DNA from: Acidothermus cellulolyticus 11B
GTDB lineage: Bacteria; Actinomycetota; Actinomycetes; Acidothermales; Acidothermaceae
Reading direction: 5' to 3'
Length of the DNA stretch: 32,000 nt
Assembly (NCBI RefSeq): GCF_000015025.1
Contig: NC_008578.1
Coordinates: 870,001 to 902,000 of the forward strand
The position numbers and the translations under genes were made by a program. Under the pieces are notes generated by a model, which saw nothing but the letters and a program-made list of their open reading frames with translations, was not told the origin of the DNA and searched no databases. This document shows, in pieces, positions 17,143-32,000 of the stretch; positions within the stretch are counted from its first letter, which is position 1, and every line of letters begins with the position of its first letter.

Positions 17143-18372
17143 GTGGTGAGCGAACAGACATTCGTCGTCGTCGGGGCGAGTTTGGCCGGTGCGAAGGCGG
17201 CGGAGGCATTGCGCAGCGGCGGTTTCGACGGCCGAATTCTGCTCATCGGCGACGATCCGGAACGTCCGTACGAGCGGCCGCCGCTCTCCAAAGGTTTTCT
17301 CCTCGGAAAAGAGCCCAAAGAAAAAGCCTACGTGCATCCGGAGAATTTCTACGCCGAGCAGAATATCGAGCTGCGGACGTCGACCAGCGTCACCGCCGTG
17401 CACCGGGACCGTCACGAGGTCGAACTTGCCGGTGGTGAGCGGATTCGCTACGACAAACTGCTCCTGGCAACCGGTGCGGCGCCGATTCGGCCCCGGCTTC
17501 CCGGCGCGGATCTCCCCGGCGTGCTTTACCTGCGCACGATGGCGGATTCCGTTGCCTTGCGGGCGGCGTTGGAACGCGGCGGCCGGGTCGTCATCGTCGG
17601 CGGCGGTTGGATCGGACTGGAGGTCGCCGCCGCGGCGCGGCATTACGGGTGTGCGGTGGTCCTGCTCGAACCACTGCCGGCGCCGTTGTACCGCGTGCTC
17701 GGGTTGGAGCTCGGCGGGTTTTATGCGCAGGTGCACCGCGACCACGGCGTGGATGTGCGGCTCGGGGTCGGCGCGGCTGAATTCCGCGGCACCGACCGAG
17801 TGGAGGCGGTTGTCGCCAGCGACGGCACGGTGCTGACGGCGGACGTCGTGGTGGTCGGCGTGGGCGCCCGACCCAACACCGCACTCGCCGAAGCGGCCGG
17901 CCTGCCGGTTGAGAACGGCATTCTCGTTGACGAATTTCTCCGCACCGCCGACCCGGACATTTTCGCCGCCGGCGACGTCGCGAATGCCTACAATCCCTTC
18001 TACGGAACGAGAATCCGGGTCGAGCACTGGGCGAACGCGCAGGATCAGGGGTCGGCCGCGGCAGTGTCGATGCTCGGCCGGGGCGAGCCGTTCGCGAAGG
18101 TGCCCTATTTCTACTCCGACCAGTACGACGTCGGCATGGTGTACTCGGGTTTGCTCAATCCCGAGGAGAGCTACGAGCTCGTGTACCGGGGCAGCCGGGA
18201 TTCTGGAGAATTCTGTGTTTTCTGGCTCAAGGACGGCGTCGTCGCCGCGGGAATGAATGTCAACGTCTGGGATGTCCACTCCGACATCCGCGCGTTGATA
18301 AAGTCCCGGACGCCGGTGGATCCGGCGAAATTAGCGGATCCTGGAACGCCGATCGCCGAGGCGGCGCGATGA
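17143..18372 (+). CDS. FAD/NAD(P)-dependent oxidoreductase (ferredoxin-reductase type)
   Basis: It has Rossmann motifs VVVGASLAGAKAAE and VIVGGGWIGLEVAA, plus AAGDVA. GTG starts at 17143 and 17146 follow GAGGAGG. The Gly/Arg-rich extension back to 16720 overlaps dgt, so I rejected it. Confidence 0.85.
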   Translation: MVSEQTFVVVGASLAGAKAAEALRSGGFDGRILLIGDDPERPYERPPLSKGFLLGKEPKEKAYVHPENFYAEQNIELRTSTSVTAVHRDRHEVELAGGERIRYDKLLLATGAAPIRPRLPGADLPGVLYLRTMADSVALRAALERGGRVVIVGGGWIGLEVAAAARHYGCAVVLLEPLPAPLYRVLGLELGGFYAQVHRDHGVDVRLGVGAAEFRGTDRVEAVVASDGTVLTADVVVVGVGARPNTALAEAAGLPVENGILVDEFLRTADPDIFAAGDVANAYNPFYGTRIRVEHWANAQDQGSAAAVSMLGRGEPFAKVPYFYSDQYDVGMVYSGLLNPEESYELVYRGSRDSGEFCVFWLKDGVVAAGMNVNVWDVHSDIRALIKSRTPVDPAKLADPGTPIAEAAR

Positions 18373-22850: not shown

Positions 22851-23010
22851 GTGATTCGTGCCCCGATCCCGTCAGTGCGCGGGCCGGTGGTCGTGCGCGC
22901 AGCGGTGAATCGCGAAACTGCCCCGATCCCGCCTGTGCGCGGGCCGGTGTCGCTGCGCCGCCGCGCTCGCGGTGCTACTGAACCGGTTCCCGCCCGTGCG
23001 CGGGCCCGTG
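22851..23010. repeat. Tandem repeat of about 60 bp, about 2.5 copies, each with a GC hairpin core (CCCG..GTGCGCGGG)
   Basis: GCCCCGATCCCG[TC]C[AT]GTGCGCGGGCCGGTG occurs at 22860-22889 and 22920-22949. A degenerate third copy lies at 22986-23010. The sequences between the cores are also related. Confidence 0.7.
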
Positions 23011-23140
23011 TCGGTTCGTGATCCGGCTCCGGTTCGTTCTTGGTGACGGATCGGTGTTGACGCCGCGGTACGCCGGTCGCGTGCGGCTGATGACCGACAC
23101 CGGCGCGGGCGCTCGTCGCGATCCCTACGCACGATGTGGC

Positions 23141-23191
23141 CCTGCCTTGGCTATTGCCCTGCCGTGGCTATGGCATTGCCTCGGCTATGGC
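23141..23191. repeat. 17-bp tandem repeat x3 (CCTGCCTTGGCTATTGC / CCTGCCGTGGCTATGGC / ATTGCCTCGGCTATGGC)
   Basis: Read directly from the sequence, about 150 bp upstream of tRNA-Asn. Confidence 0.75.
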
Positions 23192-23342
23192 CGACGCGCG
23201 GCCAGGAGGGACGACCGGCTGCCACCGCCGACCCGCTGGCATCCGAGCGCGAGGCGGTCGGCGTCCCCTCGGTGTCCGTGGCGCGGGATACGCTACGCTG
23301 ACGTGGACGTCGGCCGCGCGGTGTTAGCCGTGGGCGGGTCGG

Positions 23343-23418
23343 TCCCGCGTAGCTCAATTGGCAGAGCGTCCGGCTGTTAACCGGTAGGTTGCAGGTTCGA
23401 GTCCTGCCGCGGGAGCCA
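23343..23418 (+). tRNA. tRNA-Asn (anticodon GTT), CCA encoded
   Basis: I folded the cloverleaf by hand. The acceptor stem is TCCCGCG/CGCGGGA and the D arm is GCTC-AATTGGCA-GAGC. The anticodon loop is CTGTTAA. The T arm is GCAGG-TTCGAGT-CCTGC. The discriminator is G, followed by CCA. Confidence 0.9.
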
Positions 23419-23538
23419 TGGGGGTGTTGCTGGGGTGTGGATTGCCGGATTGGTCACGGTTGGGTTTCCTCAGGTTGGTGGTTGGGTCTAGCGGCTGGTG
23501 CTGATCGTCCGCTAGGGTGCCCTGCTGTGATCTCATCG

Positions 23539-24243
23539 ATGCGCCGGGCACGTCGGCCGTGGCTGTGGCCGTTAGTGGCGGCCTGCGGCGCACTGGTCGC
23601 GGGGGGTGCACTGGCAGGCTGTGATGCGCGGAGTCGACCGAGTGTCCTGGAACCAGCGGTGTCGGCGTCGCCGGGTGTTCCGGTGCCGCGGGTGACGGGG
23701 TTGGCGTCGGGGTCGAGTGCAGGGTCGGCGTCGGCTTCGCCTGTGTCGCCGGGCGGTTCCACGCCGACTATGACGGCTACGGTTAGTCCGTCGGCGACGC
23801 CGTGGCATGACACGCAGCGGGAAGCGTTCTACCCGGAGGCTGCCGCGAAAGAAGACGTCGCGATCCACGTGATCGAGCAATTCTTTGCTGGTGTCAATTA
23901 TGAGCTGGATGCGAATGATGAGACGTTGCTCCGTGGCGTTGTCCGTCCGGATTGTGAAAACTGTCTGAGAGCGATGGAAGGTCTACACGCGCTTCATAAG
24001 AATGGACAGGTCAGTCGTGGTGGGCATTATCACCTGGTGAGTGTTGACCAGATTTGGCCGGTCGCCCCGTCGGTGGTCGAGGTCCGCGTGACCGGCTCGC
24101 GGGATCCGGGTGAGCTATTGTCGGCTTCCGGTCAGTTGCTGAATTCGTATCCGGTTCCACCCAACGCGTATTTGCAGTTCTTCGTCGATGTTAAGGCGTC
24201 ACCTCCGGTGATCCTCCAGTACGCGGCAGTGGGGCCCGCATGA
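23539..24243 (+). CDS. Putative lipoprotein (signal peptide with lipobox LAGC, Ser/Pro-rich linker, CxxC-containing globular domain)
   Basis: It starts MRRARRPWLWPLVAACGALVAGGALAGC and contains a DCENC motif. The ATG at 23539 was chosen because the longer ORF overlaps the tRNA. The gene looks AT-richer than the core genome. Confidence 0.65.
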   Translation: MRRARRPWLWPLVAACGALVAGGALAGCDARSRPSVLEPAVSASPGVPVPRVTGLASGSSAGSASASPVSPGGSTPTMTATVSPSATPWHDTQREAFYPEAAAKEDVAIHVIEQFFAGVNYELDANDETLLRGVVRPDCENCLRAMEGLHALHKNGQVSRGGHYHLVSVDQIWPVAPSVVEVRVTGSRDPGELLSASGQLLNSYPVPPNAYLQFFVDVKASPPVILQYAAVGPA

Positions 24244-25130
24244 CCCGCGCAACTGTCAGGTTTCTTGCTCTTACACTCGCCGTTCTTCCGGCTGTCTTAT
24301 CCATTATGCCGCCGGCTACTGCGGACGAAAGCGGTACATTGTGTCGGAGCCAAGGACTGGAGCCGGTCTATTGTCCGGTGCCGGATGGCGACGGTTACCT
24401 GTATGTCTATGATTTTAGCGATCGCTTTACCCGAAACGAGAAGCCAATAACCGGCGGCACGGCGGAAAAGAAGTACGAGTTTGCTTTGACGTTTGGGTGT
24501 GCGGTGGCGAATCCGAATCGGCCGCCGGAGGAGGTGGTGTGTGTGGAGGCGCGGGAGTGGTGTGTGGGTCGGGGGTTGGCGGGGGTGCATGAGGTGATCT
24601 GGGCGCGGGAGGTGTGGCCGGTGGCGGGGGAGTGGCATGTGGTGGCGGATCGGTGTGTGGCGGGGGATGGTCCGGGGGTTGACCGGGAGGTGTTGGACGC
24701 GGTGGGGGAGGTGGCGCGGTTGCGGTTGCCGCGCCTGGTGCCGGTGGTGCAACCACGAGGGGTTGTGGTGGTGAATTTGCCGGTGGTGGTGTCGGTGGTG
24801 GATCCGGGGGTGCAGCGGTTGGTGGTGGACCGTCCGGTGCGGGGGGTGTTGGTGGCCTCGCCGCGGTTTGTGTGGACGTTTGATGACGGGTCGGTGGCCG
24901 AGGGTGCGGGCCGGGTGTTTGACGGGGTGGATCCGCGGGTGGCACCGGACCATTACGTGTCGCACACCTACCGGGCGGCCCAGGCGGATGGGTGGGTGCG
25001 GCTTACCGTGCACTGGGAGGCGGTGTTCACCACCGGTGGGATCACCTACCCGATCGACCCGATCGACGTCACCACCACCATCCACTACCCCGTCCACCAA
25101 GCTCGCGCCGTCCTCGTCACCACTCCATAA
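24240..25130 (+). CDS. Putative secreted protein (signal peptide, Cys-containing N-terminal part, Val/Gly/Trp-rich C-terminal part)
   Basis: The ATG overlaps the upstream stop (ATGA). The signal-like N-terminus is MTRATVRFLALTLAVLPAVLSIMPPATA. I recognised no family. The + strand is strongly G-rich. Confidence 0.6.
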   Translation: MTRATVRFLALTLAVLPAVLSIMPPATADESGTLCRSQGLEPVYCPVPDGDGYLYVYDFSDRFTRNEKPITGGTAEKKYEFALTFGCAVANPNRPPEEVVCVEAREWCVGRGLAGVHEVIWAREVWPVAGEWHVVADRCVAGDGPGVDREVLDAVGEVARLRLPRLVPVVQPRGVVVVNLPVVVSVVDPGVQRLVVDRPVRGVLVASPRFVWTFDDGSVAEGAGRVFDGVDPRVAPDHYVSHTYRAAQADGWVRLTVHWEAVFTTGGITYPIDPIDVTTTIHYPVHQARAVLVTTP

Positions 25131-25200
25131 ACCCGCGTAACGCACGCTCCGCACGCTGTCGTGGACGTCGGTCGCGCGGTGGTAGCCGTGGGCGGGTCGG

Positions 25201-25275
25201 TCCCGCGTAGCTCAATTGGCAGAGCGTCCGACTGTTAACGGTAGGTTGCAGATTCGAGTCCTGCCCCGGAAGCCA
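25201..25275 (+). pseudogene. Degenerate second copy of tRNA-Asn (GTT), probably non-functional
   Basis: It matches the 23343-23418 copy apart from 5 differences, and all of them disrupt pairing. One is a substitution and one a 1-nt deletion in the anticodon stem. One is a T-stem mismatch. Two are acceptor-stem mismatches (TCCCGCG versus CCCGGAA). About 48 bp of upstream flank is also duplicated (25153-25200 versus 23295-23342). Confidence 0.65.
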
Positions 25276-25709
25276 GTAAACAAGCCCCGTATTTCGGCAA
25301 TTCCAACGGGTCTGTCAATTGCACCGAGATGGCGCGCCGTGGTTTTGCATCTAAGTTTTGGGTGTTCCTCTCGAGGGTGTGATCGCGTTGTGCGTAGCCG
25401 CTCGTTCGTGTTTCGTCCTGCCTCTCTCGTCACGTGACAGTGCGCACGGTCGCTCGGCGCTTCCGAGCCACGCTTGCCTCGTTGAGCTGTGCCGAGATCA
25501 GCAAGTCATGATCGAAGAGGGTCAGTCCGTTCGGCTATGTCGTAGCGGTCGTTCGGAGCGTGCACGTGGGAGCCAAACCGGCACGTCGCGCGTATGCCAA
25601 CGATCTCTCGCGACCCACGCGCGACACCAGCTGCCATTAACTGCAAATTACTGGGGTGGATCAAGTATGCTAACGCGGAGTCTGGCGTGCGGTCGGAGGG
25701 GTGTGACCG

Positions 25710-25892
25710 ATGGATGAGACACCGGGCAATGTCCTGACCATCGAGGAGCTGTCCACGTATCTGAAGATCCCGAAATCGACGCTCTACAAGCTCGTCCGGG
25801 AAGGCAAGGTGCCGTGCCAGAAGATTGGGCGCCATTGGCGCTTCCGGAAGGAAGCCATTGACCGCTGGTTGGACGATGCGGACGGCGAGTAG
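25710..25892 (+). CDS. Excisionase-family (HTH_17/MerR-like) small DNA-binding protein
   Basis: It is 60 aa long. The sequence LTIEELSTYLKIPKSTLYKLVREGKVPCQKIGRHWRFRKEAIDRWL is the canonical excisionase-family helix-turn-helix signature. It lies 41 bp upstream of the BrxF-like gene on the same strand. Confidence 0.8.
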   Translation: MDETPGNVLTIEELSTYLKIPKSTLYKLVREGKVPCQKIGRHWRFRKEAIDRWLDDADGE

Positions 25893-25933
25893 GAAGCCGA
25901 CGAATAGGAAAGCGGAAGGCAGGAGAAATACGA

Positions 25934-26410
25934 GTGGCGGAACCGTTGGCGGATCAGGTCCTGCGCGAAGTCGATAGGGCGCGCGAGCTGTATCATCGCC
26001 TGATCCTTATGGTAGGACCGTCGGGAAGCGGGAAGACGCACGCACTGCAGCAGGTATCGGCCTCGACCTCCGCACCGCTCGTCAACGTCAATCTTGAGCT
26101 GTCTCGCCGGATGCTGGACCTAACCGAACGCCAACGGGCTCTGCAGGCTCCAAGGCTCTTGGGCGAAATCGTGGGCGAAGCCACAGGCGAGCTGGTTTTG
26201 CTTGACAACATCGAGATTCTTTTCGATGTCCACCTGAAGCAGGATCCTTTGCGTCTGCTTCAGGGATTGTCCCGGAACAAGACGGTCGTGGCCGCCTGGA
26301 ACGGATCCATCGTGGATGGTCACATGACCTACGCCGTCCCGGACCACCCCGAATACCGCCGCTACCCGATTCGGGATTTTCTGGTGGTAAGTCTCTCGGT
26401 AACAACATGA
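25934..26410 (+). CDS. brxF: BrxF-like small P-loop protein (BREX type 3)
   Basis: It is 158 aa with Walker A GPSGSGKT (26015-26038) and Walker B-like LVLLDNIE. Its size and sequence ([21 protein letters not shown]...[17 protein letters not shown]) match my recollection of BrxF. The GTG start follows AGGAGA. Confidence 0.7.
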
Positions 26411-26447
26411 AGGAAAAGAGAAGCGAAGCTGCAAGGGGACATGTGCA

Positions 26448-29400
26448 ATGAGGTATGCAGACCTGATCCAGTTCGAGCCGATCGAGTCCGTCGTCCAGCT
26501 TCGGGATGCCGATGAGGTCACGAGCGCGAGACAGTTGGTCTGCACTTATGTCATCTCCGACGAGATGGCCGAGAAGCTGACCGGCCTTGTGATCCCCCAG
26601 CTTCAGTTCGACCAGCCCGCCGATAACAAGGGGCTGCTTGTCGTGGGCAACTACGGTACCGGTAAGTCACATCTCATGTCGGTGATCTCCAGCATCGCCG
26701 AGCACGCGGACCTGCTGTCCGCCCTGGACAACGCTCAGGTGGCACAAGCAGCAAGAGCGATCGCAGGCAAGTTCAAGGTGGTCCGCACCGAGATCGGGTA
26801 CACCACTATGTCGCTGCGGGACATCCTCGTCGGCGAGCTGGAGGAGCACCTGGCCGCCATGGGCGTGACCTACACCTTCCCACACGCCAGCCAGGTCCCC
26901 AACAACAAGCGGGCATTCGAGGAGATGATGGCTGCGTTTCATGCCGAGTTCCCGGACCATGGCCTGCTCTTGGTTGTGGATGAGCTCCTGGACTATCTCC
27001 GTGGCCGCCCGGACCAGGCGCTGATCCTCGACCTTAACTTCCTCCGTGAGGTGGGCGAGGTCTGCAAGGACCTGCGCTTCCGCTTCATGGCAGGTGTGCA
27101 GGAGGCCATTTTCGACAGCCCTCGTCTCGCCTTCGCGGCCGAAAGCATCCGCCGGGTCAAGGACCGCTTCGAACAGATCCTTATCGCCCGAAAGGACGTC
27201 AAGTTCGTAGTCGCCGAGCGCCTGCTCAGGAAGACTGGCGAACAGCAGGCCAAGATCCGCGAGCACCTTACACCGTTCGCCAAGTTCTACGGCCACATGA
27301 ACGAACGGATGGACGAGTTCGTCCGCCTCTTCCCGGTCCATCCCGACTACATCGACACCTTCGAGCGCATCACGGCGGTGGAGAAGCGCGAGGTGCTCAA
27401 GACCATCTCTCTGGCCATGAAGACGCTGCACGATCAGGAGGTGCCGGAGGACCGGCCCGGTCTCATTGCGTACGACAGTTACTGGACTTCCTTGCGCGAG
27501 AACCCCTCCTTCCGCGCCGTCCCGGACATCAAGGCGGTGATCGATTGTAGCCAGGTGCTGGAGTCCCGGATCGAGCAGGCCTTCACCCGGCCGGCGTACA
27601 AGCCCATGGCGCTCCGCATCATCCACGCGCTCTCGGTCCACCGGCTGACGACCGGAGACATCTACGCACCTCTGGGCGCCACGGCTGAGGAGCTGCGCGA
27701 CGCGCTCTGTCTTTACCAGCCCGGCATCGAAGAATTAGGTGGAGACCCGGCCGACGACCTCCTTTCCCAGGTGGAAACGGTCCTGCGCGAGATCCACAGG
27801 ACGGTCAGCGGCCAGTTCATCTCCTCCAATCCGGACAACCGGCAGTATTACCTCGATCTCAAGAAGACCGACGACTTCGACGCGCTTATCGAGAAGCGCG
27901 CCGAGAGCCTCGATGCCTCCCAGCTCGACCGCTATTACTACGAGGCTTTGAAACGGGTCATGGAGTGTACCGACCAGACCTACGTTACCGGCTACAAGAT
28001 CTGGCAGCACGAGCTGGAATGGCTGGAGCACAAGGCGGCAAGACAGGGATATCTCTTCTTCGGCGCTCCCAACGAGCGCTCGACGGCCGTACCGCCCCGT
28101 GATTTCTACCTCTACTTCATTCAGCCGTTCGATCCGCCGCACTTCAAAGACGAGAAGAAGGCGGATGAAGTGTTCCTTCGCCTGACCAACAGGGACGATG
28201 AGTTTCGGATCGCGCTGACGAACTATGCCGCGGCGCTGGAGCTCGCGTCCACCTCGAGCGGCCACGCCAAAGCCACCTACGAGTCCAAGGCCACCGGATT
28301 CCTGCGGGACCTGGTGGGCTGGCTGCAGAAGCACATGACCGATGCCTTCGAAGTGACCCACCAGGGACGCACCAAGTCGCTGGTCGAATGGACCAAGGGC
28401 AAGTCCATCCGCGAGCTGTCCGGGATCGCTTCCCACGAGCGGATCAACTTTCGCGACCTGGTGAACACCATCGCCGGCATCGTCCTGTCCGCACACTTTC
28501 AGGACCAGGCGCGCGAGTATCCCTACTTCTCGGTGCTCATCACAGGCCAAAACCGCGAGCAGGCGGCACAGGACGCCCTGCGCGCTATCGCCGGACAGAA
28601 TCGCACCAAGCAGGCGATCGCCGTGCTCGACGCCCTGGAGCTCCTCGATGGCGAGCGGCTCGATCCGTACCGCTCCAAGTACGCGAAGCACATCCTGGAC
28701 ATCCTCAAGAAGAAGGGGCATGGCCAGGTGGTCAACCGCTCGGAGCTGATCCAGGAGGTCTATGGTGTCGAGTACTTCGCACCGGACAAGGGCTACCGTC
28801 TGGAGCCCGAATGGGCTGTCGTGGTCCTGGCCGCGCTGGTCTACTCCGGTGACCTGGTGCTCTCGATTTCCGGCGAGAAGTTCGACGCCACCAGGCTGCC
28901 GCAACTGGCTGCGACGATCATAGACGAGCTGGTCCCCTTCAAGCACATCGAGAGGCCCAAAGACTGGAACCTGCCCGCGCTCAAGGCACTCTTCGAATTT
29001 CTCGGGCTGACGCCGGGCATGGCGCAGCTCGTCACCCAAGGCAAGGAAGAGCCGGTCCAGCAACTCCAGAAAGCCATCTCCGCGGTGGTGGAGAAGCTGG
29101 TCCTAGTCCAACAGAGCCTGCAAAGCGGCCTAGCGTTCTGGGGCAGGAACCTGCTCGCCGAGGAGGAAGCAGCCCAGCTGCGCGACCGGCTCGACCAGAC
29201 CAAGTCTTTTCTTGAATCCCTCCAGGCCTACTCCTCGCCCGGCAAGCTCAAGAACTTCCGCTATGACGCCCAGGAGGTGAAGCGTCACGAAGACGGCCTG
29301 AAGGCCGTCTCGGAGATCGAGTCCCTGCAGGAGCTGGTGAGCGACCTGGGCCGGGTGGCCTCCTATCTCTCCACCGCCGAGGCGGTGCTGCCCACGGACC

Positions 29401-30179
29401 ACGAGTGGGTAGAGCGGATGAAGGCGACGCGAGATGCGGTGCTCGCGCAAGTGTCGGACCCGGCCCAGCGCACGTCCAGCGCTTTCCGCCAGCAGGCTCT
29501 GCGCAAACTCGCTGGCCTCAAGAAGTCCTACGTGCAAGCCTATCTCGCCATGCACGCCCGAGCCCGACTGGGCGTGAACGAGGACAGGCGCAAGAGCGCG
29601 TTGATGGGCGACGAACGGCTCAAGACCCTCTCGAGGCTCTCCACCATCGACCTGATGCCGCGCCAGCACCTGACCGATTTCCAGAACCGCCTGGCTGGCC
29701 TGAAGAGCTGCTTCGCGCTCACCGAGCAGGACCTCGACGCATCGCCGGTCTGCCCGCATTGCTCCTTCCGGCCCGGAACGGAGGGCGTGGGCGCACCTGC
29801 CGCGACCGTGCTCGAGCACCTGGACACGGAGCTGGACAAGCTCCTCGACGACTGGACCCAGACGCTGCTGGCCAACCTGGAGGACCCAACCACCCGCGGC
29901 AACCTCGACCTGCTCAAGCCCGAGCCCAGGAAGCTGGTGGATGCCTTCCTCAAGGAACGCAAGTTGCCCGACGAGCTGGGCAAGGATTTTATCCACGCCC
30001 TGCAGGAGGTGCTCTCCGGGCTGGTCAAGGTCGCCGTGAAAACCGAGGATCTGCGCGCAGCCCTTCTCAAGAGTGGCTCACCGGCGACGCCGGCGGACAT
30101 GAAGAAACGCTTCGATGAATACCTTGACGAACTCACCAAGGGCCATGAGCCTGGCAAGGTGAGAATTGTGCTGGAGTGA
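26448..30179 (+). CDS. brxC: Large BrxC-like P-loop protein (DUF6079-type, BREX type 3)
   Basis: It is 1243 aa with Walker [10 protein letters not shown] (26646-26669) and Walker [13 protein letters not shown]. The N-terminus [22 protein letters not shown] matches the family I recall following BrxF. A CPHC motif lies near aa 1100. Confidence 0.7.
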
Positions 30180-31585
30180 CCGTGAATCGGAATGAACTCG
30201 AACAAATCGCCCAACAGGGTGAATCCGAAACCATCGAGTTCAAGAAATCCACAGCACAGATCCGGCGGGCGATGGAAACACTCTGCGGCATGCTCAACGG
30301 CCATGGCGGCCGTGTGCTGTTCGGTATTACACCCCAGGGGCAGATCGTTGGGCAGACGGTTTCTGACAAAACTTTACGGGAGGTAGTCGATCAGCCGAGG
30401 CGTTTCGAACCTCCGGGCACCGTTGCCCAAACACGCATTGACCTCGGTGATGACAAGGAGTTGCTGGTGCTGGAAGCACAGCCGGATCCTACCCGGCGCC
30501 CCTATATCTTTGACGGTCGGCCTTATCAGCGGGTGGGTTCCACCACCTCCGTGATGCCCCAGGAAACCTACCACCGGCTTCTGGCAGAACGTCCCGACAG
30601 TCGCACCCGCTGGGAAACGCTTCGAGCCGAGGGATATGGTGTGGCCGACCTCGACCAAGAGGAAATCCTGCGCACAGTGCGCCTTGGTGTTGCCGCCGGC
30701 CGCTTGCCGGAATCAACGGGCGGCGACATTCCCGATATCCTGCATCGGTTGGAATTGCTCAAGGGCGGTCGTCTGAACAACGCAGCCATCGTTCTATTCG
30801 GCACCTGCTTCCTCCCTGACTATCCTCAATGCCAGCTGCGTATGGCCCGCTTCCGTGGGGTGGACAAATCGGAGTTCCTCGACCAGCGCCAGATCGAAGG
30901 GCACGCCTTTGCCCTGCTTGACGAGGCCATGCTGTTTTTGCGCCGCCATCTTCCCGTGGCGGGCCGGGTCGTCCCCGGGCTGTTCGAGCGTGAGGACGAG
31001 CCATTGTTTCCGCTGGAGGTCCTGCGTGAGGCGCTGGTCAATGCCTTCTGCCACCGGGACTACACCATCGCAGGCGGGGCGGTCAGCCTGGCCATCTACG
31101 ACGATCGCCTGGAGATTTGGAGCGACGGGACCTTGCCATCCGGTCTCACCCCGGAGGATCTCAAGCGAGACCACACGTCAAAACCGAGCAATCCGTTGAT
31201 CGCCAAGGTGTTCTACCTTCGCGGCGTCATCGAGCGCTGGGGACGCGGGACACAAAAGATCGTCGAGCTGTGTGTCAAGGCTGGGCACCCAGAGCCAGAA
31301 TTCGGCGAGCAGGCCGGTAGCGTCTGGGTGCGCTTCGTACCGAGCGGTTACATTGCCCCGCATCGCGTAGCGCATGACCTTACCGAGCGACAGCGGGAGG
31401 TCCTGCAAATCACTGCTCATCATGGCCCGATCCCTCTTCGAGAGATCATGCAGCAGATGGCAAGCCCGCCGGCCTCCGCTACGGTCCGGGATGATCTCTA
31501 CCACCTGAAGCGTCTGGAATTGGTCGATTCCGCTGGACATGGCCGAGGGGCCGTGTGGCGGCTGCGCAGAGAGGAAAGCTCATGA
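30176..31585 (+). CDS. COG2865-type protein: AlbA_2 (Schlafen-like) DNA-binding domain + HATPase_c_4 domain + C-terminal winged-helix
   Basis: [10 protein letters not shown] and the [12 protein letters not shown] core are typical of AlbA_2. [13 protein letters not shown] is typical of HATPase_c_4. The tail REVLQI...[10 protein letters not shown] is HTH-like. The GTG start overlaps the brxC stop (GTGA). Confidence 0.8.
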
Positions 31586-31767
31586 GCACCGGAATAAGCT
31601 GGCATCGGCTGGAGAATAAGCGGGAATGGCCAGCGTATTTCCAGCTTATTCGCATGAACCATCGGGAAGCCTTTCCATATGGGCATCTTATGGAGAACCC
31701 ATATAAGGCGAAAATAAGTCGGCTCCATTCCGCCCTATCCCTCCCAAGAGGAGCGAAATTCACATGA
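31582..31767 (+). CDS. 61-codon ORF coupled at both ends (ATGA/ATGA); it may instead be a structured non-coding linker
   Basis: Its ATG overlaps the upstream stop, and its stop overlaps the downstream ATG. The segment is noticeably AT-richer and contains inverted repeats, so coding status is uncertain. Confidence 0.3.
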   Translation: MSTGISWHRLENKREWPAYFQLIRMNHREAFPYGHLMENPYKAKISRLHSALSLPRGAKFT

Positions 31768-32000
31768 ACCGGCAAAACAACCTTTTTGAAAACCAGGAGG
31801 CCAAAACCAGGGACCAGGAACCTGTCGAATGCCTTGGCAAGACCTTCGACTCCGACGAGGCGCGGCGGCAGCACTTCCTCCGCCTCTTGCGCGAAGGGCT
31901 GGAGGAACTCCACGCCAAGCTCGGCGGTGTGCCCTTCACCACGGTGGAAGACGCCGTGGAACGGATGAAGTCGGTCGAGAAATGGCCGATGGGAGGTGAG
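31764..32000 (+). CDS. N-terminus (79 codons, open at the window end) of a probable large DNA methyltransferase (PglXI-like)
   Basis: It is absent from the ORF track because no stop falls inside the window. My translation is MNRQNNLFENQEAKTRDQEPVECLGKTFDSDEARRQHFLRLLREGLEEL.... GAGGAG lies 10 nt upstream. The CLG.TF...EARR..F motif resembles N-termini of large N4/N6 methylases as I recall them. No catalytic motif is visible yet. Confidence 0.45.
   Translation, partial: MNRQNNLFENQEAKTRDQEPVECLGKTFDSDEARRQHFLRLLREGLEELHAKLGGVPFTTVEDAVERMKSVEKWPMGGE

Follow-up and report, generated by a model that had tools for sequence, protein, structure and literature searches.

The last part of a 32,000-nt stretch of the Acidothermus cellulolyticus 11B genome (the window; all coordinates are positions in it unless a contig is named) raises the question of whether the operon that begins there, at 25710-32000 on the + strand, is a bacteriophage exclusion (BREX) system of new architecture or a known type that carries additional genes. 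A preliminary description had called the region a BREX type 3-like defense operon at a tRNA-Asn hotspot, with a non-canonical gene order that was possibly a new variant. Our analysis indicates that the region is very probably the 5' half of a complete type 3 BREX operon, located on an island of ~16 kb and lower G+C content that abuts a degenerate tRNA-Asn, and that the extra genes do not amount to a new core architecture.

Core genes and borders of the island

The tightly packed, same-strand open reading frames (ORFs) listed in the preliminary description were all present on the + strand, with spacings in the 5' half of the operon of 41 bp, 37 bp and then a 4-bp overlap. The first encodes a 60-aa HTH_17, or excisionase-family, DNA-binding protein (25710-25892; Pfam HTH_17, 67.9 bits; TIGR01764, 61 bits). 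It is followed by genes for the 158-aa BREX-3 P-loop protein BrxF (25934-26410), for a 1243-aa BrxC/PglY-type ATPase of the DUF6079 family (26448-30179), and for a 469-aa protein that joins a Schlafen RNase domain (AlbA_2), a GHKL-type HATPase_c_4 domain and a putative C-terminal winged helix-turn-helix (wHTH) (30176-31585). The window ends within the gene for the PglXI methyltransferase, of which it holds the first 79 of 992 codons (31764-32000). All of these genes are on the + strand.

Profile searches assigned 25934-26410 to the BrxF family, as had been proposed (NCBIfam NF033453, BREX_3_BrxF, 206.5 bits against a cut-off of 50; PADLOC BrxF, 7.3e-99, full length), and 26448-30179 to the BrxC/DUF6079 family (Pfam PF19557, DUF6079, 1955 bits over residues 1-1243; PADLOC BrxC, 2164 bits). 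The motifs quoted for these proteins were located at BrxF aa 28 (GPSGSGKT), BrxC aa 67 (GNYGTGKSH) and BrxC aa 176 (VVDELLDYL).

The remainder of the operon was supplied by a contig of 16,371 bp that is 100% identical to window 25201-32000. This contig (L001, or L087 at full length, where window position equals L087 position + 25200) was recovered via the exact BrxC protein from short-read assemblies of at least 8 sequencing runs. The genes anticipated beyond the window were all found on it: the 992-aa PglXI (PADLOC PglXI, 1495 bits over residues 3-991, with Pfam N6_N4_Mtase also matching), the SNF2 helicase BrxHII (PADLOC BrxHI/BrxHII, 1685 bits, full length; SNF2-rel_dom and Helicase_C), a PglZ of the type-3 subfamily (NCBIfam BREX_PglZ_3, 823.5 bits against a cut-off of 250) and the 260-aa BrxA (L087 15175-15957; PADLOC, 3.6e-117), which overlaps the PglZ stop by 4 bp. 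The probable methyltransferase start at the window's end was confirmed as the PglXI N-terminus, with its ATG at 31764 and not at 31765.

The complete operon comprises nine co-oriented, tightly packed genes in the order HTH_17, BrxF, BrxC, Schlafen-HATPase_c_4-wHTH, PglXI, DUF3800/RNase H2-like, BrxHII, PglZ and BrxA. Type 3 BREX was reportedly defined by Goldfarb et al. in 2015 as brxF-brxC-pglXI-brxHII-pglZ-brxA. All six defining genes are present here in canonical relative order with full-length profile matches, and the earlier identification of the core was correct; the locus differs by three interleaved genes, namely HTH_17, the Schlafen gene between BrxC and PglXI, and the RNase H2-like gene between PglXI and BrxHII. 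The locus is already recognized as BREX-3 in public annotation, because the UniRef cluster of its BrxF, sourced to Acidothermus cellulolyticus 11B, bears the name 'BREX-3 system P-loop-containing protein'. Literature searches on Acidothermus BREX, on BREX with HTH_17 and on HATPase_c_4/AlbA_2 returned nothing relevant.

The BrxF proteins of this clade are 70-94% identical across very distant phyla, and the Walker A residues G33, K34 and T35, together with D91, were invariant in BrxF alignment A1. A 2026 survey (PMC12839542; Rakesh & Krishnan 2026, NAR) groups BrxF with 'inactive STAND' BrxB-like proteins that are fast-evolving and without Walker motifs, a description that does not match the present clade with its invariant Walker A.

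A genuine tRNA-Asn (GTT) lies at 23343-23418 on the + strand (ARAGORN; Rfam tRNA, 69.4 bits), and a degenerate second copy on the same strand, a pseudo-tRNA-Asn at 25201-25272 (Rfam, 38.7 bits), stands at the left edge of the BREX island. The second copy was not accepted by ARAGORN and has a 1-nt deletion in the anticodon stem as well as acceptor-stem mismatches. Both copies are part of a 124-bp direct repeat of 93.5% identity, in which 23295-23418 (the tRNA-Asn plus 48 bp upstream) corresponds to 25153-25275. The G+C fraction falls from ~0.67 to ~0.60 at roughly 25000, by the pseudo-tRNA copy. At the far side, the island contig was read to composite position 41571, and its final 62 bp (L087 16310-16371) repeat window 24919-24980 at 96.8% identity; because of this repeat, the ~16-kb island appears to be flanked by direct copies of a segment ending in the pseudo-tRNA.

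Eight of 50 other loci, which belong to unrelated lineages (L016, L020, L028, L032, L059, L062, L078 and L093), have a tRNA-Asn (GTT) in the same orientation 30 bp-2.3 kb before BrxF; it is far more frequent there than any other tRNA. The claim of a tRNA-Asn hotspot held, on the strength of the degenerate copy that abuts the island and of these other loci. The recurrence of tRNA-Asn suggests that the BREX-3 cassette travels on tRNA-Asn-targeting elements. Rarer in the same position were tmRNA (L023, L037), tRNA-Ser (L043) and tRNA-Phe (L060). Between the true tRNA-Asn and the pseudo-copy, window 23389-25130 holds two ORFs of 284 and 296 aa without a Pfam match. The first begins with a lipoprotein-like signal sequence (…LAGC), a strong GC skew runs across the region, and the repeated segment 24919-24980 belongs to the ORF at 24240-25130.

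Gene order among BREX-3 loci

Gene order was compared in a census of 80 BREX-3 loci from one-genome-per-species reference genomes. The loci were retrieved with the BrxF alignment, BrxF being a type-3 hallmark that is neutral towards accessory genes, and were scored by tblastn with the nine operon proteins. Of the 77 loci with enough upstream sequence, 42-43 have an HTH_17 homolog as the gene immediately before BrxF, on the same strand; its identity is at least 60% in 31 loci and reaches a maximum of 87%. The junction between BrxC and PglXI was scored on the 38 loci that show a complete BrxC as well as PglXI. BrxC and PglXI were adjacent (≤300 bp) in just 7 of these loci and separated by more than 1 kb in 26, with a median gap of 1.68 kb. 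When the ORFs in the gaps were clustered, 17 ORFs from 16 of the 38 loci fell into the family of the window's Schlafen-type protein, and three further loci had a gene of this family directly after BrxC with the sequence ending before PglXI. The HTH and Schlafen genes occurred together in 10 of 19 Schlafen-bearing loci.

The closest arrangement was that of Rubrobacter naiadicus (GCA_028617085.1, JAQKGW010000011.1; L095), which has the same order of HTH_17, BrxF, BrxC, Schlafen gene, linker and PglXI, with 89% nucleotide identity over window 25625-31648 and a Schlafen protein that is 91% identical. It differs in its linker, which is 304 bp long with the repeat element duplicated; in its second slot, where a 1414-aa ORF without a Pfam match (L095 14694-18938) replaces the 267-aa RNase H2-like gene; and in its upstream flank, where primase/DUF3987 genes and no tRNA are found. 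PMC12839542 also describes a module of Schlafen RNase, minimal histidine kinase and wHTH beside BREX and BREX-related cores in at least 1017 taxa, as well as auxiliary effectors with core genes on either side. The protein of the window is the same module, embedded beside a BREX core.

The suggestion of a new architecture was not borne out, because the arrangement is common among related loci and has been published. A leading HTH together with an embedded Schlafen gene (the COG2865 gene of the preliminary description), the novelty of which had been said to fail if it were common in annotated BREX-3 loci, is in fact the commonest layout in its BREX-3 clade and is already in print.

Other occupants of the slot between BrxC and PglXI were OLD/TOPRIM nucleases, ABC-type ATPases, YhcG PD-(D/E)XK nucleases, DUF6602, HerA, GHKL ATPases and small 23S_rRNA_IVP proteins, which are known defense cargo. 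The second slot, between PglXI and BrxHII, was filled in 8 of 9 loci (0.7-3 kb) with GmrSD, a GHKL ATPase (HATPase_c_3), AIPR or OLD. In this BREX-3 clade, interleaved extra genes are the rule and not the exception.

Several features of the sequence before PglXI were observed in the course of the census. The 23S_rRNA_IVP four-helix cluster comprised 7 ORFs of ~94-150 aa, one representative of which was run against Pfam and gave 120 bits. Its members recur directly upstream of PglXI (L008, L009, L018, L048 and L065; also L031) and, in L013, in the second slot. Long simple tandem repeats directly precede the PglXI start in L031, L009, L020, L026 and L027, among them about 20 heptamers GAAACTC/GCAACTC at L031 ~17250-17390, and could make the expression of the methyltransferase phase-variable. 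An integron-like boundary element before PglXI, common to the cargo-bearing loci, was considered and rejected, as the loci have unrelated sequences in the 100 bp that precede PglXI; L048 was the only locus with the palindrome TAAGCTGG...CCAGCTTA.

The extra genes and their flanking elements

The HTH_17 protein exceeded the cut-off for the TIGR01764 'excise' domain (61 versus 28.8 bits) and remained below the equivalog cut-off for MAD1 (NCBIfam NF047737; 61.8 versus 80 bits); it is a member of the same domain family as MAD1 and not a MAD1. The two resemble each other as small HTH proteins of the HTH_17 fold family (PADLOC mad1, 2.8e-11), MAD1 being encoded by the first gene of a methylation-based defense operon, the methylation-associated defense system (MADS). 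According to the MADS paper, deletion of mad1 had a limited effect on defense, and MAD1 was classed as accessory partly through homology to widespread regulators. BrxR, the regulator of BREX-1, is a WYL-domain protein unrelated to the HTH_17 protein of the window.

Alignment A2, together with k-mer and pattern counts, located a promoter- or operator-like block upstream of the HTH_17 gene, at 25621-25651 on the + strand. It consists of GCGACA, a 17-bp spacer, CCAGCTGCCATTAACTG, and CAAATT. The clade consensus of the 20 aligned loci, which take in L008, L015, L018, L021, L023, L028, L048, L076, L083 and others, is TTGACA, a 17-bp spacer, GCAACTGTCAATAACTG, and TAAATT. Within the clade spacer are two direct (C/T)AACTGT(C/A)A repeats, 11 bp apart, that reach or abut the -10 element; 5' of the -35 element, the sequence is unrelated between the loci. 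The block in the window is a GC-shifted version of this consensus, degenerate in the first bases of the hexamers and in repeat 1, and the nucleotide similarity to the Rubrobacter cassette starts at 25625, at the -35 element. A simple sigma-70 promoter scan of 25100-32000 found no promoter, and terminator-like sites in the same range were fewer than the chance expectation.

This conservation suggests that the cassette carries its own promoter and that HTH_17 would bind the AACTGT repeats and regulate its own expression, like the controller proteins of restriction-modification systems. The putative operator, which consists of AACTGT direct repeats within the promoter spacer, is peculiar to this BREX-3 clade, a difference from controller proteins, BrxR and MAD1. 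A second, divergent HTH_17 clade (L017, L024, L026, L027, L044, L047, L059, L062, L073 and L075), 35-41% identical to the protein of the window, is preceded by another conserved sequence, tttgtcctggtttgt..., where the AACTGT promoter block would be.

GTG 30182 is the more likely start of the Schlafen-type gene and gives a protein of 467 aa, as in homologs and gene calls; an exact look-up matched the 467-aa form and returned no match for the 469-aa form. Its domains scored well above their cut-offs (SLFN_AlbA_2, PF04326, 62.7 versus 25.3 bits; HATPase_c_4, PF13749, 84.8 versus 26 bits). The catalytic Ex4ExK motif is present as ESETIEFK at aa 16-23. Among 26 homologs of 65-91% identity, E16, E21 and the GHKL-like residues N289, D317-G318 and G356-R-G358 were invariant, and K23 was kept in at least 90%; the N-box-like sequence is EALVNAFCH. 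Because BrxC was upstream in just 6 of 62 close metagenomic homologs and others stood beside mobile or defense genes (integrase, IS transposase, SNF2 helicase, type IIG methylase-nuclease and RecG-like helicase), the Schlafen gene is an autonomous mobile module.

The protein has the Ex4(E/D)xK motif and the apparent domain order of the HisKinase-HTH class, which makes up 19.2% of bacterial Schlafens (Taboada et al. 2025; bioRxiv 10.1101/2025.07.24.666596). In that study, two of seven other bacterial Schlafen architectures tested gave phage protection, and one of these cleaves tRNA. By analogy, the protein of the window is most likely a backup abortive-infection tRNase or RNase.

Between the Schlafen gene and PglXI is a linker of 178 bp (31586-31763, + strand), which had been described as structured and AT-richer. 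The composition was as described, with 47-51% G+C versus ~61% in the flanks; the predicted fold was no better than that of shuffled sequences (z = -1.37; 16 of 200 shuffles matched it). The linker holds the sole three copies of GAATAAG in the 32-kb window (31592 and 31614 on the + strand, 31645 on the - strand) and an 11-bp inverted repeat, GAATAAGCTGG / CCAGCTTATTC, at 31592 / 31641. Its segment 31598-31648 matches L048 at 82%. The distal segment, ATAAGGCG...CCGCCCTATCC, is followed by the PglXI ribosome-binding site GAGGAG and, as read from the sequences, resembles the end of the L097 array that forms the hairpin. An Rfam search of 23000-32000 found no family besides tRNA.

A tandem array of a ~10-bp unit, GGAATAAGGC, in 3-6 copies at spacings of 10 or 13 bp, follows Schlafen-kinase-wHTH genes in other loci (L097, L098/L104, L100, L109, L119, L120, L122, L125, L127, L132, L134, L160 and L171). 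The array starts at or across the stop codon, often inside the last codons, with many homologs ending in ...NKAE and the stop, and in a subset of loci an inverted copy closes it into a long hairpin. Its 10-bp period corresponds to one helical turn of DNA. Among the 44 loci with a Schlafen protein at least 58% identical to that of the window, 31 had at least two forward copies of AATA[AG]G in the 150 bp that follow the stop; background windows of 150 bp averaged 0.017 copies, and none contained two. In two loci Tandem Repeats Finder reported such arrays (5.1 x 10 bp and 2.6 x 23 bp); for the window it gave a weak remnant. The motif was not enriched upstream of the Schlafen gene, and the array was present regardless of genomic context, BREX or not. 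A keyword search of the Schlafen preprint found no mention of the array, which distinguishes the present observations from its account of the HisKinase-HTH class. From the GAATAAG copies, the inverted repeat and the match to L048, the linker of the window appears to be a degenerate copy of this Schlafen-associated array.

In distant Schlafen homologs (46-50% identical; L141, L146, L151 and L158) the forward motif was absent and 3-5 copies of C[CT]TATT occupied the same 150 bp; these reverse-complement copies may represent the array in inverted or variant form. Covariation between the repeat-unit variant and the wHTH recognition helix was also examined; it gave one weakly correlated position (Y/A versus L) and was not used.

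A joint reading of the two flanking elements is offered tentatively, and we regard it as possible but on balance doubtful. The array could be an iteron-like docking site for the wHTH of the Schlafen protein itself, where binding would control the RNase or the read-through into the downstream gene, here PglXI, and, as a lesser novelty, the HTH_17 leader with its AACTGT direct-repeat promoter could be an undescribed, dedicated BREX-3 regulator. The array would then be a cis-element that travels with Schlafen-HATPase_c_4-wHTH genes into BREX-3 operons and many other contexts.

The third extra gene is outside the window, between PglXI and BrxHII, and encodes 267 aa (L087 9546-10349, equal to composite 34746-35549, + strand; an ORF on the identical contig). 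The AlphaFold model of a 93%-identical member has a predicted local distance difference test (pLDDT) score of 93.2, and the top 13 PDB matches in Foldseek were all RNase H2/HII (probability 0.92-1.0, TM 0.33-0.51). Residues D7, E8, D131 and D182 are invariant in the family, and some homologs carry a PF12686 match or the NCBI name 'DUF3800'. The model and these residues point to a DUF3800-like protein with an RNase H-like fold and conserved acidic residues. It is like the DUF3800 effector of type VII retrons (Mestre et al. 2020, PMC7736814) in its RNase H2-like fold and N-terminal DE motif. It differs in being below the Pfam DUF3800 cut-off and in having no reverse transcriptase or ncRNA partner, since it occurs inside a BREX-3 operon or alone in mobile elements.

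The family is small, with 123 relatives in 5.8 billion proteins and none in the 80 census loci. In other BREX-3 loci, one of which has no Schlafen gene, the slot between PglXI and BrxHII is likewise filled by relatives of 87% and 63% identity, and relatives of 41-57% identity were found outside BREX, in a defense-island-like neighborhood, at an AlpA/VapE-type mobile-element edge and among ordinary chromosomal genes. The gene had been considered as a novelty of BREX-3, which was rejected when the database search returned these relatives, both from this slot and from outside BREX.

Alternative readings and meaning of the locus

Instead of regulating BREX, the leading HTH could be the genuine excisionase (Xis) of an integrative island that targets tRNA-Asn and carries BREX. 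The 61-bit match to the 'excise' domain, the tRNA-Asn copy that the island abuts and the tRNA-Asn upstream of BrxF in 8 of 50 other loci would fit such a role, but in 42-43 of 77 loci the distance between HTH_17 and BrxF is fixed and very short, with HTH_17 identities of up to 87%, the gene has its own conserved promoter-like block, and loci with a directly adjacent tRNA-Asn, such as L016, can lack the HTH. A real Xis role is very unlikely, because the nine genes predicted on the 16.4-kb island contig have no integrase family among their Pfam matches. The idea that the whole locus is a remnant which Acidothermus has ceased to express draws on decay in its flanking elements: repeat 1 and the initial bases of both promoter hexamers (-35 and -10) are degenerate against the clade consensus, the flanking tRNA copy is a pseudogene, and the array 3' of the Schlafen gene is degenerate. 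It is nonetheless quite improbable in view of nine intact ORFs that are full length against their profiles, intact catalytic and P-loop motifs, and the assembly of the same contig from at least 8 sequencing runs. Actinobacterial promoters also tolerate weak -35 elements.

Two further alternatives concern the region between BrxC and PglXI. The Schlafen-HATPase_c_4-wHTH protein might be a transcriptional regulator of the downstream methyltransferase rather than a nuclease effector, which would agree with the old COG2865 name 'predicted transcriptional regulator', with the name 'transcriptional regulator' that some sources give to homologs, with the C-terminal wHTH-like region and with the conserved repeat array between its stop codon and PglXI. 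We consider this unlikely: the Ex4ExK residues are invariant or nearly so in the 26 homologs, most close homologs are outside BREX (BrxC upstream in 6 of 62) near integrases, IS elements and restriction-modification genes, the array follows the gene in non-BREX contexts too and is therefore not specific to PglXI, and published bacterial Schlafens act as tRNase effectors. The same low likelihood is given to a role of the micro-ORF (61 codons, 31582-31767, + strand, spanning the linker) as a real small protein or as a translated bridge that couples the Schlafen gene to PglXI. The frame noted in the preliminary description is indeed open. Its ATG overlaps the Schlafen stop and its TGA at 31767 overlaps the PglXI ATG, giving ATGA overlaps at both ends; in Rubrobacter it is open over 103 codons with in-frame indels, and the differences in linker length between the two (126 and 12 bp) are both multiples of three. 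It is not conserved as a protein, however. The linker of L097 is 84 bp, where the frame, as read from the sequence, stops ~10 nt before PglXI, and in L160, L171 and others it stops within a few codons. Over the alignable parts, peptide identity with Rubrobacter is roughly 50% versus 82.6% nucleotide identity for a segment that extends into PglXI. No gene caller called the micro-ORF, and its peptide largely equals the translated DNA repeats. After comparison with more relatives, in several of which it is absent or truncated, the micro-ORF was rejected as a gene and is probably a by-product of the repeat element.

The reading of the region as a type 3 BREX operon with a regulatory leader and two cargo genes has points against it as well. 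The hexamers of the window's promoter (GCGACA / CAAATT) are degenerate and were unmatched by the simple sigma-70 scan, and the operator role of the AACTGT repeats is deduced from their conservation, among cassettes that are related by horizontal transfer. In the Schlafen protein, the C-terminal wHTH corresponds to a weak Penicillinase_R match (aa 402-464, E = 0.0012, 19.7 versus 22.6 bits), and HisKinase-HTH Schlafens are not among the classes shown to defend, the tested proteins having had DUF262 or Ig-like partners (bioRxiv 10.1101/2025.07.24.666596). For the 267-aa protein, the Pfam DUF3800 match is below its cut-off (17.2 versus 21 bits, E = 0.0085), and the TM-scores to RNase H2 are low, at 0.35-0.5. 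The searchable literature holds little experimental characterization of type 3 BREX.

With the region read as a type 3 BREX operon, and as established or proposed for BREX, PglXI would methylate a motif in host DNA, and the machinery of BrxF, BrxC, BrxHII, PglZ and BrxA would block the replication of unmethylated incoming phage DNA. The HTH_17 protein, encoded by the usual leader gene of the clade, would most likely repress or time the operon through the AACTGT repeats in its own promoter, and would act like a restriction-modification controller protein or BrxR. In the slot between BrxC and PglXI, the Schlafen protein, which keeps its catalytic motif, would most likely serve as the backup tRNase in abortive infection that published bacterial Schlafens suggest. 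The RNase H2-like protein in the slot between PglXI and BrxHII would be a mobile accessory effector.

The locus adds one more correctly recognized BREX-3 system and leaves the known picture unchanged. Diagrams of a 'canonical' operon are misleading for this clade: a minority of its loci have BrxC and PglXI side by side as in the textbooks, and the operon acts as a scaffold whose two cargo slots gather backup effectors. The repeat array and the HTH_17 promoter block, both recognized through their conservation, are the most interesting residue of the analysis. If these side observations are true, the HTH_17 protein and its repeat-bearing promoter would give a testable handle on the regulation of type 3 BREX, and the repeat array would give one on the role of the kinase-like and wHTH parts in the commonest class of bacterial Schlafens.

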